Assembly: GCA_963674965.2 (NCBI GenBank)
Contig: CAXXFL010000005.1
Span: 416,001 to 480,000 of the forward strand
Reading direction: 5' to 3'
Source of the DNA: a bacterium
Lineage (GTDB): Bacteria; RBG-13-61-14; DATKZS01
Length of the DNA: 64,000 nt
The first letter of the stretch is position 1; every line of letters starts with the position of its first letter. The notes beneath the pieces were generated by a model. The model saw only the letters and a program-made list of their open reading frames with translations, made no database searches and was not told the DNA's origin. The position numbers and the translations under genes are program-made. This document shows positions 11,447 through 45,198 of the stretch, one piece after another.

Positions 11447-11525
11447 TGTCCTCCTCCTTCTCGCGTATTTTCCTTATCTCGCCTCGCCAATGGCGTTATG
11501 CATAATAAAGTTTACAGTAGAGCTA

Positions 11526-11540
11526 TCATAAATCGTGCCA
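11526..11540 (-). promoter_or_regulatory. Possible sigma-54 promoter for the EAL gene
   Basis: TGGCACG-ATTT-ATGA on the minus strand: perfect -24 element, imperfect -12. Confidence 0.3.
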
Positions 11541-11852
11541 TAGGCCATGTTTTTTTTAACTAGGGGTATTTACTAGGCATTACGGCTTTTTAAATTATCT
11601 CTTCTTTGACGTTTCCATACAAAAATGTTATTATAAGTATATTATATTACAATATTGTAGGAGAAGATCGGGAGAAAAAGGGGCGATGCGCGCCTTAAAT
11701 ATCCGCCGTAACCGCAGTTTTTTTCAGAAGCACAAGCTACGGCCGAAAGAGTAAAGGAGGGCCTCATGGAACTAGAAAAATGACATTGACTTTATAATGG
11801 GAGCGGGGTTGTGTCTGTTGAAAATGATCGGGACGCGCATAGAATGTCTATA

Positions 11853-12983
11853 TTACATGTTGTTGCGCTGTTTGCGGACTTGTTCGAGTGAAACGACATT
11901 TTCATCAGTTGTTGATATGTCTTCTATACCAAGTTCAATCCCAAATTTTTTAAAAATGCTCGGCTTTAAATGCAAATATTTAGCTATTTGAACTGGAGTA
12001 GTACCCTTTTGACGAAGCAAGGCAAACCCCATAGGTATAATTTCAGGTTTTTCATATTCGAGATATTGTTCACCAGGTTCATTAGTTCTCCAACCTTTTT
12101 TATTTATATAGATGCAACTGTTTCTGTAATCTACAGCACTGATCAGTTTTAAATCATAGGCCCTTCTAATAATTGCTTGCAAGCTTACGCCCCATCTAGA
12201 TTTCATTTGTATTAGTTTTTCCCAGCTAGTTCTCTTAGATTTTGGAAATTCCCGTTGAAATGAAATTGCCGGTAACAGGAAAGCACTAGCGAAATGGTTA
12301 GCTTCATCTTCTAATTCAGGATTGTCAGCATCAAGATCTTGATGTAAAACCAAATGACCAAGCTCATGGGCTAGATCAAATCTTGCTCTTGATATACTTT
12401 CTTTATTGTCATTCCTAACAACAATTGGGCGATCGTAATAATAGGAAAATGCGTCTATTTTATCGGACACACCTTCAAAAGTAGTTACAATGCCACCATA
12501 GTTTTCAATAATACGCACAACATTGTGTATGGGCGCATCGGACGTTAAGCCCCAATCTATTCTGCATTGTTCTGAGACTTCTTCGATATTTTTTAAGTTT
12601 TTCACTGTTGATCCAGTAATGATATCTTCTGGAAGTTCAAGCATAGAGTTGAAGAACTCTACTAGCCAATTGAATATTGTCCCATATGCGAGAGCCGTTT
12701 TTTGTGTGCGAAGAGGCGTGGTTTTCCTTTTACGAAAATGACATACTTCTTCTGGAACCTCTCCCCGAATCGGGGAATAAAAGAAAGTTGGCTCCACAAG
12801 CAGAATTTCTGATAACACCGCGATCATATCATTAGAGGGATAAGTATTTGGGTCCGTCTCAAGACGTTGAAGATATTGCCGGCTGACAGATATCATTTGG
12901 CCTAATTGGGCTAATGTATAGTTTTGTAATGAACGGGCAAACTTTAATTTTGAACCATAAAATGTCCTGTTATTTTTCTCCAT
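11853..12983 (-). CDS. XRE-family HTH fused to ImmA/IrrE-type zinc metallopeptidase (RmrA-like antitoxin)
   Basis: N-terminal HTH (LKFARSLQNYTLAQLGQMISVSRQYLQRLE); RFDLAHELGH (HExxH) and EDEANHFASAFLLP motifs; AT-rich. Confidence 0.9.
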   Translation of the reverse strand: MEKNNRTFYGSKLKFARSLQNYTLAQLGQMISVSRQYLQRLETDPNTYPSNDMIAVLSEILLVEPTFFYSPIRGEVPEEVCHFRKRKTTPLRTQKTALAYGTIFNWLVEFFNSMLELPEDIITGSTVKNLKNIEEVSEQCRIDWGLTSDAPIHNVVRIIENYGGIVTTFEGVSDKIDAFSYYYDRPIVVRNDNKESISRARFDLAHELGHLVLHQDLDADNPELEDEANHFASAFLLPAISFQREFPKSKRTSWEKLIQMKSRWGVSLQAIIRRAYDLKLISAVDYRNSCIYINKKGWRTNEPGEQYLEYEKPEIIPMGFALLRQKGTTPVQIAKYLHLKPSIFKKFGIELGIEDISTTDENVVSLEQVRKQRNNM

Positions 12984-13566
12984 TATCGGCTGTCCCTTCT
13001 TTTATACCATTTTGAAGGCGAACAGTGGGCTTTTTCAGAGGCACTGAGTCAGGAATTGTATGTTGAGGTTCTGAATATTCATCATCAAAAATTGGAATAA
13101 TCCAAGGATGTCGAGCAGTGCCATACTCATCAAATTGGGCAATGGTAATTCGGTCCACTTTGCCATCACTGAATGTATCAACTGCAATTCGCCAAACCAA
13201 AGGCCTATCATCTTCTTCGAATAGCCACATCTGCCTAGCTTCAATTTCAGGATGCTTCATCTGTAAACGACGGGAAGAAGGATTTTCAAGGCTACCACTG
13301 TAAAAACGAATGGGGATTTGATTGACAAGTATTAATAAGTACAAGTTTTCCCTCTTCACCTCAAGCCACTCGAGGTTTTTAGCTTCTGAGCTTATCTTGT
13401 TTATTGTCCGTTCATATATTCGACACCCAAGGCTCCATGCCCCGTCGCCATCTTGAGGCTCATGTAGCATAATCGCCTTGTGCCGCACGTCTCTCATAAT
13501 ACTGGCAAGCTTCCGCAAGCATTCAGGTTTCAGTCCTTCATTCAGTTCCCATGGCTTCTTTTGCAT
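12970..13566 (-). CDS. Hypothetical protein, putative toxin/effector partner of the HTH-peptidase (RmrT-like position)
   Basis: AAGGAGG RBS; overlaps the downstream peptidase gene by 14 nt; same AT-rich composition. Confidence 0.75.
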   Translation of the reverse strand: MQKKPWELNEGLKPECLRKLASIMRDVRHKAIMLHEPQDGDGAWSLGCRIYERTINKISSEAKNLEWLEVKRENLYLLILVNQIPIRFYSGSLENPSSRRLQMKHPEIEARQMWLFEEDDRPLVWRIAVDTFSDGKVDRITIAQFDEYGTARHPWIIPIFDDEYSEPQHTIPDSVPLKKPTVRLQNGIKEGTADNGEK

Positions 13567-13611
13567 GAAATAAAGCCTCCTTCATTAAACATTTAAGTAC
13601 AAAACAAGAAT

Positions 13612-13639
13612 ATTATAGCATGATTCTAAATTTTGTCAA
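13612..13639 (-). promoter_or_regulatory. Sigma-70 promoter of the toxin/HTH-peptidase operon
   Basis: TTGACA(13639-13634)-N16-TATAAT(13617-13612) with TG extended -10; overlapped by a GTCAACCGAAA direct repeat (13635, 13654). Confidence 0.8.
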
Positions 13640-13947
13640 CCGAAATATTATTAGTCAACCGAAAACATTTTTTGCCCATCGCAGGTAAAAATAATTATAT
13701 TAAATATCAGCGAGTTGGATAGATTAGTATGACTAAGTACGGACAAAAGGTGACACGCAACCATATAAACATGAAAGAGGGCCGTCCTCCAAGACATTTT
13801 AAGGTATAACCGTAAACCAAAGGGCTGCAATTCATCGCCCCAACAGATAATTCATATATGAAACAAATTGTCAACCCAGAACTGTCCCGTCCTCCAGTTG
13901 CTAAAGCTTTTTCTTTTTATTCCATCTTCCGGCGGAAAAGGGGGAAT

Positions 13948-13984
13948 AAAAAAAAGAGGAAAACCTCTCGATTTGCCTCTTTTT
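13948..13984 (-). terminator. Intrinsic terminator with GAGA tetraloop
   Basis: Minus strand AAAAAGAGG-C-AAAUC-GAGA-GGUUU-U-CCUC-UUUUUUUU. Confidence 0.75.
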
Positions 13985-14193
13985 CTAACCTCGATAAAAC
14001 CATGGGCGAAGGCGCACGTAGTAAGGATCCTGTAACAGATGTCTGGCAAGGGTCCACTGGGGGTGTGGTTGGTCGCGTGATCGGCAATTACCCGCTACAG
14101 GGGTTGATCAGCTAATAACATTACCCCCACCCATGGTTCATCGAAATTGTCAGAGAGCTTACCGTTTTCCGCCGCCAAGGTAGCCCTCAGTCG
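13948..14193 (-). ncRNA. Candidate structured non-coding RNA (~245 nt), family not recognised
   Basis: Own promoter, nested stems (13991-14006/14130-14144; 14058-14064/14123-14129; 14078-14082/14106-14110), 5' hairpin, terminator; no convincing ORF. Confidence 0.55.
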
Positions 14194-14199
14194 GATTGC

Positions 14200-14248
14200 A
14201 ACATACCACATGTTGGGGTCATGTCAAGAAAAAAACTAAATATAGAGG
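14200..14248 (-). promoter_or_regulatory. Sigma-70-like promoter overlapped by two NrdR-box-like sites
   Basis: TTGACA(14227-14222)-N16-TATGTT(14205-14200) with TG extension; boxes ataCcAcATgTtGgg (14203) and aaaCtAaATaTaGag (14233) versus consensus acaCwAtATaTwGtg. Confidence 0.5.
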
Positions 14249-14330
14249 ACGTTTTTTTATACATCCTTTTAAGTAGTTGATATATATGAAAAATGACCGA
14301 TTTTAAATGTAATACAGATTACAATTTAAT

Positions 14331-15341
14331 CTAAAGCAGCGCCAAACCAACGAATATCAAGAGCACTAAGGGCGATAATCCAGCCGCTTTTAACAATAAT
14401 CCGCTCTCCGAATCGAACAGGTTACCCGCTTCCTCAGGACTTATCGCAACGCCCAAACCGAATAACGACATGACCGACAAAACCAGAATCGCCATGCCCC
14501 ACCTCGGCGCTATTCCGGGCGAGCGCTCGGGAAGAAGGTCCGAATAAAGCATGTACCGGTCCGCCACCCGCTTATGTAATAGAAGTATCAGGGAAGGGGC
14601 CAATATGACTGAAACCAAAAGGTTATTGGCCAACACCCAGGGGCCGAAAACTCGAAAGGGCACGAACCCGAGAAGCTCGATCCCATAGCCTAGTATCCCG
14701 GCCAGGGCGGTCGAGGCCACGAATATCACCAGCACCAGCTTGAGGGGAGAGAAGACAATGAAAAGCACCGACCCTCCGGCCAGGGTAAAGATAATGGCTA
14801 TAAGGATGATCGAGCCGGCCAGTCCCAGGCCGACCTTCTCCTCGCCCGTGCCCCATTTGAAGAAATCCTCGACGCTTATAATACCGGCCCCGTTGGCCAG
14901 ATAGGCGCCTACCGCGCCCAGGACGAAAAGACCCGCCAGGATAAGGCCGATGACCTTTTTATCGACCAGGCGGGCGGGGATTCTCCCGCGCCATCCCCTT
15001 AGCTCCTCTCCCACGTCCTTACCGCCGGTCATGGCCTCCCACATCTTGTAAGGGACGTAGCCGTAAACGAAATTGGCCGCGAACCCGAACAAGGACCCCG
15101 GCCCGAACATGCCCCCCAGCATGTCGCCCACCACGTTGCCGAAGGCGGCGCCCCAGGCCCCGGCCGGACCGAAAAACAAGGAGAACAGGACGGGCAAAAC
15201 CGCCGCCGGCCTGACCTCGGCAAGTCCCGGAAAGATGACCAGGACCTTGAAAGGCAGTAAAGCGGCCGTATATACCGCCGCGCAGACCGCCACCAGCACC
15301 ACCATCCTCGGCTCACGCCACATGGTTACAGCGTCCTTCAT
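14331..15341 (-). CDS. QueT-family / ECF S-component-like membrane transporter
   Basis: Multi-TM; 'LVAVCAAVY...PFK...PGLAEVRPA...FGPAGAWGAAFGNVVGD' motif; GGAGG RBS before ATG 15341. Confidence 0.75.
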   Translation of the reverse strand: MKDAVTMWREPRMVVLVAVCAAVYTAALLPFKVLVIFPGLAEVRPAAVLPVLFSLFFGPAGAWGAAFGNVVGDMLGGMFGPGSLFGFAANFVYGYVPYKMWEAMTGGKDVGEELRGWRGRIPARLVDKKVIGLILAGLFVLGAVGAYLANGAGIISVEDFFKWGTGEEKVGLGLAGSIILIAIIFTLAGGSVLFIVFSPLKLVLVIFVASTALAGILGYGIELLGFVPFRVFGPWVLANNLLVSVILAPSLILLLHKRVADRYMLYSDLLPERSPGIAPRWGMAILVLSVMSLFGLGVAISPEEAGNLFDSESGLLLKAAGLSPLVLLIFVGLALL

Positions 15342-15584
15342 GGAAACCTCCAGAATATGTATTACCGCCGGTGGCTTATTGTAACATCCGGGTTTTGACA
15401 TTTGAAGCCGGGAAAATCCCGACTCCCTTCGGCTACGCCATATTTTTGCTTTCTCGGAAAAGCTCGCGATTTACAAAATTTCTCGAAACTTTTTGAGAGT
15501 TCGGGCGTTCTAACATGGATACCGGGCAGTAAGCCTTTAAAAGAAAGAATGATATCCAGAACGAAGCGAAATTTACATTCACCA

Positions 15585-15770
15585 GAGCTTCTTGCAAAAG
15601 TACTTTTCTTTGCGGCATAGCCGCTTTGGAGTGCGGTCGCTTGAGACCGCTTTCGAGGGCCTTGGCTTGACAAGGCCTATTAATACACCGGCTTGCCTCG
15701 CGTCAAGCCGCTCGGAAGAAAAGCGGCGTCGAGCCGCCGCACTCCAAAGCGGGAATTTTGCAAGAGGCTC
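15585..15770. mobile_element. MITE copy 1 (~185 bp) with terminal inverted repeats and internal REP-like palindromes
   Basis: GAGCTTCTTGCAAAA...TTTTGCAAGAGGCTC termini flanked by ACCA on both sides (possible 4-bp target duplication); homologous to 30998-31180 and 31647-31831 in inverted orientation. Confidence 0.85.
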
Positions 15771-45012: not shown

Positions 45013-45085
45013 TGCTCCCAAGGGGACTCGAACCCCTGTTTCCGGATTGAGAGCCCGGCGTCCTAGACCTCTAGACGATGGGAGC
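45013..45085 (-). tRNA. tRNA-Glu (anticodon CUC), CCA not encoded
   Basis: GCUCCCA acceptor stem, anticodon arm CCGGG-CUCUCAA-UCCGG, T-arm GGUUCGAGUCC. Confidence 0.95.
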
Positions 45086-45124
45086 ACAATTTAAAAAACG
45101 GGCAAACTTCGCCCGAAAATCTCA

Positions 45125-45198
45125 TGGCTGAGGGACCAGGATTCGAACCTGAACTGCCGGGGCCAGAACCCGGTGTCCTGCCATTAGACGATCCCTCA
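45125..45198 (-). tRNA. tRNA-Gln (anticodon CUG)
   Basis: UGAGGGA acceptor with U1-A72, anticodon arm CCGGG-UUCUGGC-CCCGG, GGUUCGAAUCC, encoded CCA. Confidence 0.95.

Follow-up and report, generated by a model that had tools for sequence, protein, structure and literature searches.

The present analysis concerns a predicted RNA gene on the minus strand of a 64,000-nucleotide (nt) stretch of bacterial DNA (GenBank assembly GCA_963674965.2, contig CAXXFL010000005.1, forward-strand positions 416,001 to 480,000; hereafter the window, in whose coordinates positions are given), for which a preliminary description had suggested a novel class of RNA beside a pair of defence-like genes. The reading that we favour, with a probability of about 0.55, is that positions 13948-14227 hold an independent gene for a structured RNA of ~245 nt, outside the catalogued families, and that a C-rich core of 43 nt within this RNA would serve as a binding platform. 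The unit is placed between the stop codon of the gene for a 356-residue membrane protein with similarity to QueT (14331-15401) and an island of low GC content, in a genome of 6.5 Mb (7 contigs, 97.6% complete) that has a single copy, as no second copies or relaxed cores were found elsewhere in it. In general terms the unit has the attributes of a gene for a structured non-coding RNA (ncRNA), namely its own promoter and terminator, compensatory changes in its helices, and a lack of coding character. The latter follows from the fact that homologues differ by insertions or deletions of 1-2 nt within the core loop; the overlapping open reading frames (ORFs) have no match in Pfam.

The overall predicted shape of the RNA is a rod, in which the two ends of the molecule form the closing stem and the inner stem presents the core (Table 1). 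The 271-nt stretch that contains it folds at −100.9 kcal/mol, as compared with −76.0 kcal/mol for dinucleotide shuffles (z = −5.13), and 0 of 200 shuffles were as stable.

Table 1. Coordinates of the predicted RNA gene, of its upstream sites and of the neighbouring genes.
Feature	Positions	Strand	Remarks
RmrA	11853-12983	−	376 aa (amino acids); PADLOC RmrA 1.6e-95; Pfam HTH_3 and Peptidase_M78
RmrT	12970-13566	−	198 aa; PADLOC RmrT 8.1e-17
RNA body	13948-14195	−	~245 nt; 5' end placed at ~14193 (±3) from the −10 element; 3' end within the U-run
Intrinsic terminator	13948-13984	−	Hairpin with GAGA loop, then U8
Closing stem, 3' strand	13989-14014	−	Partner of 14124-14146
Inner stem, 3' strand	14029-14040	−	Partner of 14090-14101
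C-rich core	14044-14086	−	43 nt, 20 of them C; holds the predicted small hairpin CCAC/GUGG with a C5 loop
Inner stem, 5' strand	14090-14101	−	Pairs with 14029-14040; 12 pairs, 98.8% paired
Variable region and hairpin	14102-14123	−	Between closing and inner stems; length and sequence differ in every homologue
Closing stem, 5' strand	14124-14146	−	Pairs with 13989-14014; 22 pairs, 94% paired
5' hairpin (helix 1)	14153-14188	−	10 pairs; 90% of cells paired across the seven f1 sequences; peripheral
Promoter	14200-14234	−	T-tract, −35 TTGACA, 16-nt spacer, TG-extended −10 TATGTT
IHF-like site	14270-14282	−	TATCAA-N4-TTA; between palindrome and promoter
Palindrome	14308-14323	−	TGTAA-N6-TTACA; directly behind the upstream gene's stop codon; ~120 nt before the putative transcription start
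QueT-like membrane protein gene	14331-15401	−	356 aa; Pfam QueT 1.2e-10 on residues 35-154; outside the transcript

A DNA search of 61 genomes matched all four genomes of the same family, at 77-81% nucleotide identity, and none of the 56 others, whereas the adjacent protein is only 45-50% identical. A covariance model of the RNA (R1) recognized it in 5 of the 13 genomes of the phylum, all of family f1, and among 185,579 species genomes a strict pattern for the core matched the four f1 relatives and no others. The core-pattern search of a metagenome collection yielded six loci: two identical to the RNA of one of these relatives (G003), two new full-length variants (L017 and L019), and two that hold only the core (L021 and L022). 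More distant copies could be recognized by tracing the QueT-like gene, which is present in 11 of the 13 genomes of the phylum. Directly downstream of this gene a diverged copy of the RNA is found in G007 (family f4; R1 score 19.5 bits, E = 1.2e-4), and another is found in G009 (family f3), which was missed by R1 and was found via its promoter. Two further genomes (G006 and G008) have neither the QueT-like gene nor the RNA, in two genomes of family f5 the gene is present as a fusion and the RNA was not detected, and G005 and G010 are uninformative, since in both the contig stops at the gene. These searches give nine distinct full-length sequences, from three families of one order in an uncultured phylum, and the RNA is single-copy and vertically inherited in at least three families of this order.

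The QueT-like gene adjoins the RNA in 8 of the 9 distinct full-length loci, while the other neighbours differ: its orthologues are directly upstream and co-oriented in the genome under study, in G001 to G004, in G007 and in G009, and convergent with the RNA in L019; in L017 the gene was not matched in the 875 nt upstream of the RNA. Searches of mobile DNA gave 0 matches to three core patterns in the viral_contigs collection, and no blastn match of the RNA to phages and plasmids. A relaxed pattern produced one match in viral_contigs, with a loop that is not C-rich and without UGCC, which we judged to be due to chance. We likewise set aside the matches that the relaxed core pattern, run over 401 genomes, gave in 25 genomes outside the phylum, as the reversed-pattern control was comparably frequent and R1 recognized nothing in 25 of those loci. 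The four public sequencing runs listed for the stretch are contig sets, none of them on record as RNA; among the three that were compared with it, the source of the assembly covers the region. A 188-nt contig from a run of a different study is identical to the window over positions 13949-14087 (139 bases) and departs from it beyond these, in the variable hairpin, which indicates that another sample contained a close relative of the organism with a variant RNA.

Conservation of the predicted structure can be seen at two levels. In the alignment of the seven distinct f1 sequences, the 59 base pairs of the model are paired in 94.2% of the cells, versus 38-45% when the partners are slid by 1-3 columns, and changes on both sides occur at six pairs (10 cells), five of them in the closing stem. 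These statistics are modest when taken alone, given that the sequences share ancestry and were aligned to fit the model. The rewriting of helices between families is, on comparison of the copies, the stronger structural evidence. In the individual folds of G007 and G009 both strands of the closing stem are wholly different in sequence and still complementary, and closing and inner stems together are fully rewritten yet complementary in G007, G009, L021 and L022. The core is enclosed by a helix in each of the 11 copies; this helix has five sequence versions, and when the 3' flank was shuffled 200 times only 0-8 of the shuffles attained its duplex energy. The covariation across families is thus established from individual folds and flank duplexes and not from one alignment statistic, the rewritten stems of G007 and G009 being beyond what MAFFT could align. 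The copy in G009 folds with z = −4.05. Conservation of the 5' hairpin is limited to family f1; at this place a different short hairpin is seen in G007 and none in G009.

The promoter scan recognized a sigma-70-type promoter in the copy under study (TTGACA-16-TATGTT at 14227-14200, with 10 of 12 consensus matches and TG present). The combination of T-tract, TTGACA and TG-extended −10 recurs in 9 of 9 full-length homologues, with TTGACA-16-TACATT and TG in G007, and TTGACA-16-TATAAT and TG, a 12/12 match, in G009. A terminator is present in seven of the nine full-length copies (those of the genome under study, G003, G001, L017, L019, G007 and G009) and is not evident after the RNA in G002 or G004; in six copies it is separate from the closing stem. 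In G009 (L031:2492-2625) a U-tract directly follows the closing stem on its 3' side, and the terminal helix seems to double as terminator; the terminator scan did not call this arrangement, whose loop is too long for the scan rule. Upstream of the promoter, the palindrome of Table 1 is a possible site for a regulator of the CRP/FNR type. At its position G002 and G004 carry TGTGA-N6-TCACA, similar palindromes are seen in G001 and G007, and no clear equivalent was recognized in L017 or G009. The IHF-like motif, so named for its resemblance to the IHF consensus, occurs at the same position in G002, G003, G004 and G007, and in imperfect form in G001, L017 and G009. The recurrence of the two sites at kept positions in most relatives suggests that the RNA may be regulated rather than constitutive. 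The genes downstream of the RNA vary in every relative (FtsH, a convergent spermidine-synthase-like gene, a protein with a HELLH motif, and an FAH-like protein), and so the RNA is not the leader of a conserved gene. For the full RNA, the role of a riboswitch or cis-regulatory leader was rejected on this ground, together with the convergent orientation of one of these genes and the separation of terminator and closing stem in six copies; for the core alone, such a role may still apply in the contexts of L021 and L022.

The letters of the core are equal in 6 of 7 f1-type sequences, save for 0-2 extra A in the loop; G004 shows two further changes, and in G001 the first U is replaced by A. Four blocks, UGCC, ACCA(A)CC, ACCC and GGACCCUUGC, are all that remains fixed in G007 and G009. 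Most of the invariant letters fall at predicted loop positions, and variation is confined to the helices around them. The small hairpin CCAC/GUGG could also form in G007 (as CCA/UGG) and in G009 (as CCU/GGG); the pairing CCG/UGG, which in G009 would be CCC/GGG, is an equally good alternative. The two core-only loci match the model at positions 105-151 only (47.5 bits for L021 and 49.8 bits for L022), inside other helices, and their core is that of f1 without a single substitution. In L021 the core sits in a hairpin of ~26 base pairs (bp), 8 nt upstream of AGGAG and an ATG, within a co-oriented gene cluster of which the five ORFs tested belong to no Pfam or PHROG family. In L022 (1158-1340), on a contig of 34% GC, it is part of a mini-RNA of ~135 nt, which has a site resembling a promoter, ends at a strong terminator and consists of a closing stem, one hairpin, the identical core and this terminator; the mini-RNA adjoins a divergent RmuC gene. 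The organism of L022 is not among the 185,579 species genomes scanned, and the ORFs of L021 and L022 have no homologue in the genome under study.

Since the core recurs letter for letter, with other helices, on two unrelated metagenome contigs, it can be regarded as the functional module. One might go further and propose that core and enclosing helix are a new autonomous module (be it a small ribozyme, a high-affinity site for some host factor, or an aptamer that binds a ligand) that was moved horizontally and rebuilt in different scaffolds, namely a housekeeping-like small RNA (sRNA) of an uncultured order, a gene cluster of possibly viral origin, and an organism of 34% GC. This joint proposal is a tentative one and rather unlikely to hold.

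Comparison with the 4227 models of Rfam 15 was run at two levels of stringency. At gathering thresholds the 64-kb window yields two transfer RNAs (tRNAs) elsewhere and nothing on the RNA; these two adjacent genes (45013-45198, minus strand, 63.8 and 56.6 bits) are the sole Rfam matches in the window. At E≤10, region 13600-14500 gives 12 weak matches, the best of 19.8 bits against a cut-off of 55 bits, all on the A/T-rich terminator side and none over 14020-14200, and the L017, L019, L021 and L022 loci gave 0 matches at E≤1. A full-text search of 8.4 million papers with words from the core sequence returned unrelated primers only. On these comparisons the RNA family is previously uncatalogued and lineage-specific, unlike any family of Rfam 15; that it is new to print is a statement drawn from the literature word search and Rfam. 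The proposal of a novel ncRNA class made in the preliminary description has thus held, with copies in three families, compensatory helix changes and a non-coding sequence in addition to the null result in Rfam.

Several known roles were tried and rejected. The genome has its own signal recognition particle (SRP) RNA, RNase P RNA and transfer-messenger RNA (tmRNA) elsewhere, all above cut-off (71.5, 295.5 and 164.3 bits, respectively), and the RNA matches none of these housekeeping models; a 6S RNA (RF00013, 84.5 bits) is encoded on another contig. A sponge of the CsrB/RsmZ type was discarded, as CsrA (PF02599) was not found in the genome and the RNA has few GGA motifs (3 in ~200 nt, roughly the number expected by chance). 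Neither Hfq (PF17209) nor Ro/TROVE (PF05731) was found in this 97.6%-complete genome, and an Hfq-dependent sRNA and a bacterial Y RNA were rejected on these grounds. The same holds for a long-antisense regulator, as the genome has no other complementarity exceeding 13 nt, the chance level in 13 Mb.

We propose that the RNA acts in trans, with the core as its working part. The core would be a folded binding platform for a conserved cellular partner, which is likelier to be a protein than an RNA; the rod would provide a stable scaffold, as in 4.5S/SRP RNA; and the foreign copies of the core in L021 and L022 might be captured decoys or mimics. A binding platform is proposed because most of the invariant letters are in predicted loops, the variation is confined to the surrounding helices, and it is precisely the core that two unrelated elements share, set in new helices.

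Other readings of the same observations have to be weighed. C-rich sRNAs such as RsaE/RoxS of Firmicutes pair with the G-rich ribosome-binding sites of mRNAs, and the exposed C-rich stretches of the RNA (the C5 loop, ACCC and CCAACC) could pair in this manner with several mRNAs. In favour of such a regulator, the RNA has a possibly regulated promoter of its own, with palindrome and IHF-like site upstream, and a terminator with a U-tail, and the C-rich letters lie in predicted loops in which the C-run is kept while the length varies; however, 43 near-invariant letters far exceed the needs of a seed, no Hfq was found, complementarity in the genome stays within the 13-nt chance level for 13 Mb, and G007 and G009 lack the C5 loop. 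On the whole this reading is rather unlikely. The presence of conserved junction and loop letters in helices of free sequence (11 of 11 copies, five versions) is, on the other hand, typical of an aptamer or a self-cleaving ribozyme, of ~70 nt if inner stem and core are taken together, of which the large RNA, L021 and L022 would be three deployments. Placement 8 nt upstream of AGGAG and ATG in L021 and directly before the terminator in L022 fits this possibility, as does the transporter-like S-component that is the neighbour in the order. We consider it doubtful and would give it little weight, in that in the bacterial family the element lies downstream and not upstream of the transporter gene, is equipped with a promoter and a terminator of its own and is followed by no conserved gene (in one copy the gene that follows is convergent), matches no known riboswitch or ribozyme model, and in L021 does not sequester the ribosome-binding site in the predicted fold. 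By analogy with OLE RNA, which two reports describe as a conserved ncRNA that forms a membrane-localised ribonucleoprotein (RNP) with the protein OapA (PMC12265935, PMC7936274), the RNA might form a membrane-associated RNP with the QueT-like protein. Their adjacency in 8 of 9 full-length loci and three families, despite changes of the other neighbours and one inversion, agrees with such a partnership; it may equally be synteny inherited within a phylum of 13 genomes, and no such gene is present in the 875 nt upstream of the L017 copy, the core of L021 and L022 is not accompanied by it, and two f5 genomes have the gene without detectable RNA. We regard this RNP as improbable. The similar size and the rod formed by the two ends also recall 6S RNA, so that a second 6S-like RNA, which mimics an open promoter and binds RNA polymerase, could be imagined. 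This is very improbable: the canonical 6S RNA is found elsewhere at 84.5 bits, the Rfam 6S models do not match, and in place of a large open bubble the RNA has at its centre a compact conserved domain, which a 12-bp stem closes off.

The remaining alternatives concern the genes on the other side of the terminator, which the preliminary description took for a toxin/peptidase pair with the RNA as a possible third component. The pair is RmrT/RmrA, i.e. a RosmerTA cassette; RmrT matches PADLOC and one PHROG of no assigned function, and no Pfam family. In favour of the RNA as a third component, antitoxin or sensor, is its position in this genome, co-oriented with rmrT and ~380 nt upstream of it. 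The cassette has its own perfect promoter at 13639-13612 and lies inside a low-GC island (~11500-13950; GC 0.37-0.43 versus 0.57-0.64 in the flanks) that is specific to this genome of ~60% GC, and the RNA terminates before the island. A tblastn search with RmrT and RmrA gave matches only in the locus of this genome and none in the 11 other loci that hold the RNA or the core, and RosmerTA is described as a two-protein system of toxin and protease-domain antitoxin, with no RNA (PMC10440598). The absence of the pair beside the RNA in every relative implies that the RNA is not its third component, a role to which we attach hardly any credence. The pair is, as the comparison of loci indicates, a later, genome-specific insertion next to an older, vertically inherited RNA and unrelated to it. 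The preliminary description had also considered the locus as a conserved insertion site, and this idea has fared better. Because the island starts right past the terminator, within a few bases of it, mobile DNA may preferentially insert on the 3' side of the RNA gene, much as it does at tRNA and tmRNA genes, and the downstream neighbour differs in every relative examined. The island contains no integrase, however, its far side has no direct repeat of the RNA 3' end, an empty-site allele was not seen, and poor synteny alone could look alike. A landing site, which is compatible with our main explanation, is therefore possible, even if we would not count on it.

Returning to an independent RNA with the core as binding platform, a number of observations weigh against it. 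With seven related sequences, relatedness alone can exceed the shuffle controls of f1 pairing. G007 folds only marginally better than its shuffles (z = −1.47, 16/200), covariation within the core is absent in f1, and the predicted GCGA/UUGC helix cannot be formed in G009. The plus strand of the copy under study also folds well (z = −3.06); the invariant G-U pairs of the inner stem, which would be C-A mismatches on the plus strand, support the minus strand, in agreement with the orientation of promoter and terminator. The discrete transcript of ~245 nt is itself a prediction from the letters of the DNA. Neither the L021 nor the L022 contig could be classified, and since the core has diverged within the order and is identical in L021 and L022, recent capture is likelier than ancient constraint; their identity points to what may be a recent transfer, and so says less about function than appears. 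Finally, the idea of a protein partner is a proposal from architecture with no candidate protein, Hfq, CsrA and Ro not having been found in the genome; proteins of the KhpA-type KH kind were found.

The sub-features enumerated in the preliminary description are all literally present on the minus strand, and comparison with relatives separates those that are kept from those that are not. Its promoter (14227-14200) and 5' hairpin are borne out by the 10/12 scan score with recurrence in 9 of 9 full-length homologues, and by 10 pairs with 90% pairing in the seven f1 sequences. The terminator with GAGA loop and U8 was likewise correctly placed (13948-13984). The closing stem is real, and its length of ~15 bp was too short an estimate, the actual stem having 22 pairs (14124-14146 with 13989-14014). 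The letters UGGGGGU/ACCCCCA are present as claimed, and the same G-run is used by the closing stem; because of this competition the pairing is only a possible pseudoknot. A string resembling the boxA consensus has dissolved on inspection: its first six letters (GCUCUC) are the 3' strand of the 5' hairpin, and the following six differ in each relative. The pairing UGAUC/GAUCA is seen only in this genome and partly in G001. An inverted repeat that would bracket the unit does exist (13 nt, 92% complementary, 13930-13942/14162-14174), with a downstream arm that has no counterpart in the relatives. Since they are not conserved, the boxA-like string, UGAUC/GAUCA and the bracketing repeat are no better than chance.

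Some observations were made on the neighbourhood of the QueT-like gene. The membrane protein is an unusual one: its orthologues in other families, of 255-332 aa, have no middle segment, and those of family f5 form part of fusion proteins of 865-906 aa. Between this gene and the next one the window contains a repeat of ~187 nt with terminal inverted repeats (15585-15770), similar to a miniature inverted-repeat transposable element, which gives 105 blastn matches over all 7 contigs, many at 90-100% identity, and appears as a depth spike of up to ~3000 in public contig sets.

If the transcript is confirmed, the gene would represent a new structured RNA family in a barely studied uncultured phylum of 13 species genomes. 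Its promoter is near consensus and has a T-tract, the rod is long, and the core is far better conserved than the neighbouring protein, all of them features typical of an RNA that is abundant and stable. The separable core, reused in two foreign contexts, is a well-defined object of ~70 nt that is amenable to direct biochemistry. A tempting misreading is also corrected, in that the RNA is not to be counted as part of an RNA-containing defence system.

These results can be compared with what is described for known systems. To RosmerTA the likeness is one of physical neighbourhood only; the difference is that RosmerTA is a system of two proteins (PMC10440598), and that the RNA lives without the pair in all relatives. 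OLE RNA with OapA shares the arrangement of a conserved structured ncRNA whose gene lies beside a membrane-protein gene, and differs in its ~600 nt, its occurrence in Bacillota and the experimental basis of the OapA partnership (PMC12265935, PMC7936274), versus ~245 nt here and a link made by synteny only (8 of 9 loci). The resemblance to 6S RNA (RF00013) lies in length and rod shape; a canonical 6S elsewhere in the genome, the lack of a central bubble and the lack of a model match set the RNA apart from it. With the C-rich sRNAs RsaE/RoxS the RNA has in common several unpaired C-runs and strong sequence conservation, and it is much larger, with one long invariant block as opposed to short repeated seeds, and no targets were found for it. 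Another architectural parallel is 4.5S/SRP RNA (RF00169), also a rod formed by the ends, with a small, highly conserved domain (protein-binding in SRP) far from the ends, and with longer and shorter scaffolds that carry one domain, as is likewise the case here; the genome's real SRP RNA is nonetheless elsewhere (71.5 bits), the core sequence is unrelated to it, and protein binding is in our case only proposed. The orphan, lineage-restricted sRNAs found by comparative genomics, such as the Bacteroidales-1, Acido-Lenti-1 and Chlorobi-1 motifs of Rfam, are also stand-alone genes with promoter and terminator, covarying structure, narrow range and no assigned function. The RNA described here differs from them in having no match in Rfam 15, and in that its 43-nt core is separable and is found by itself in foreign contexts.

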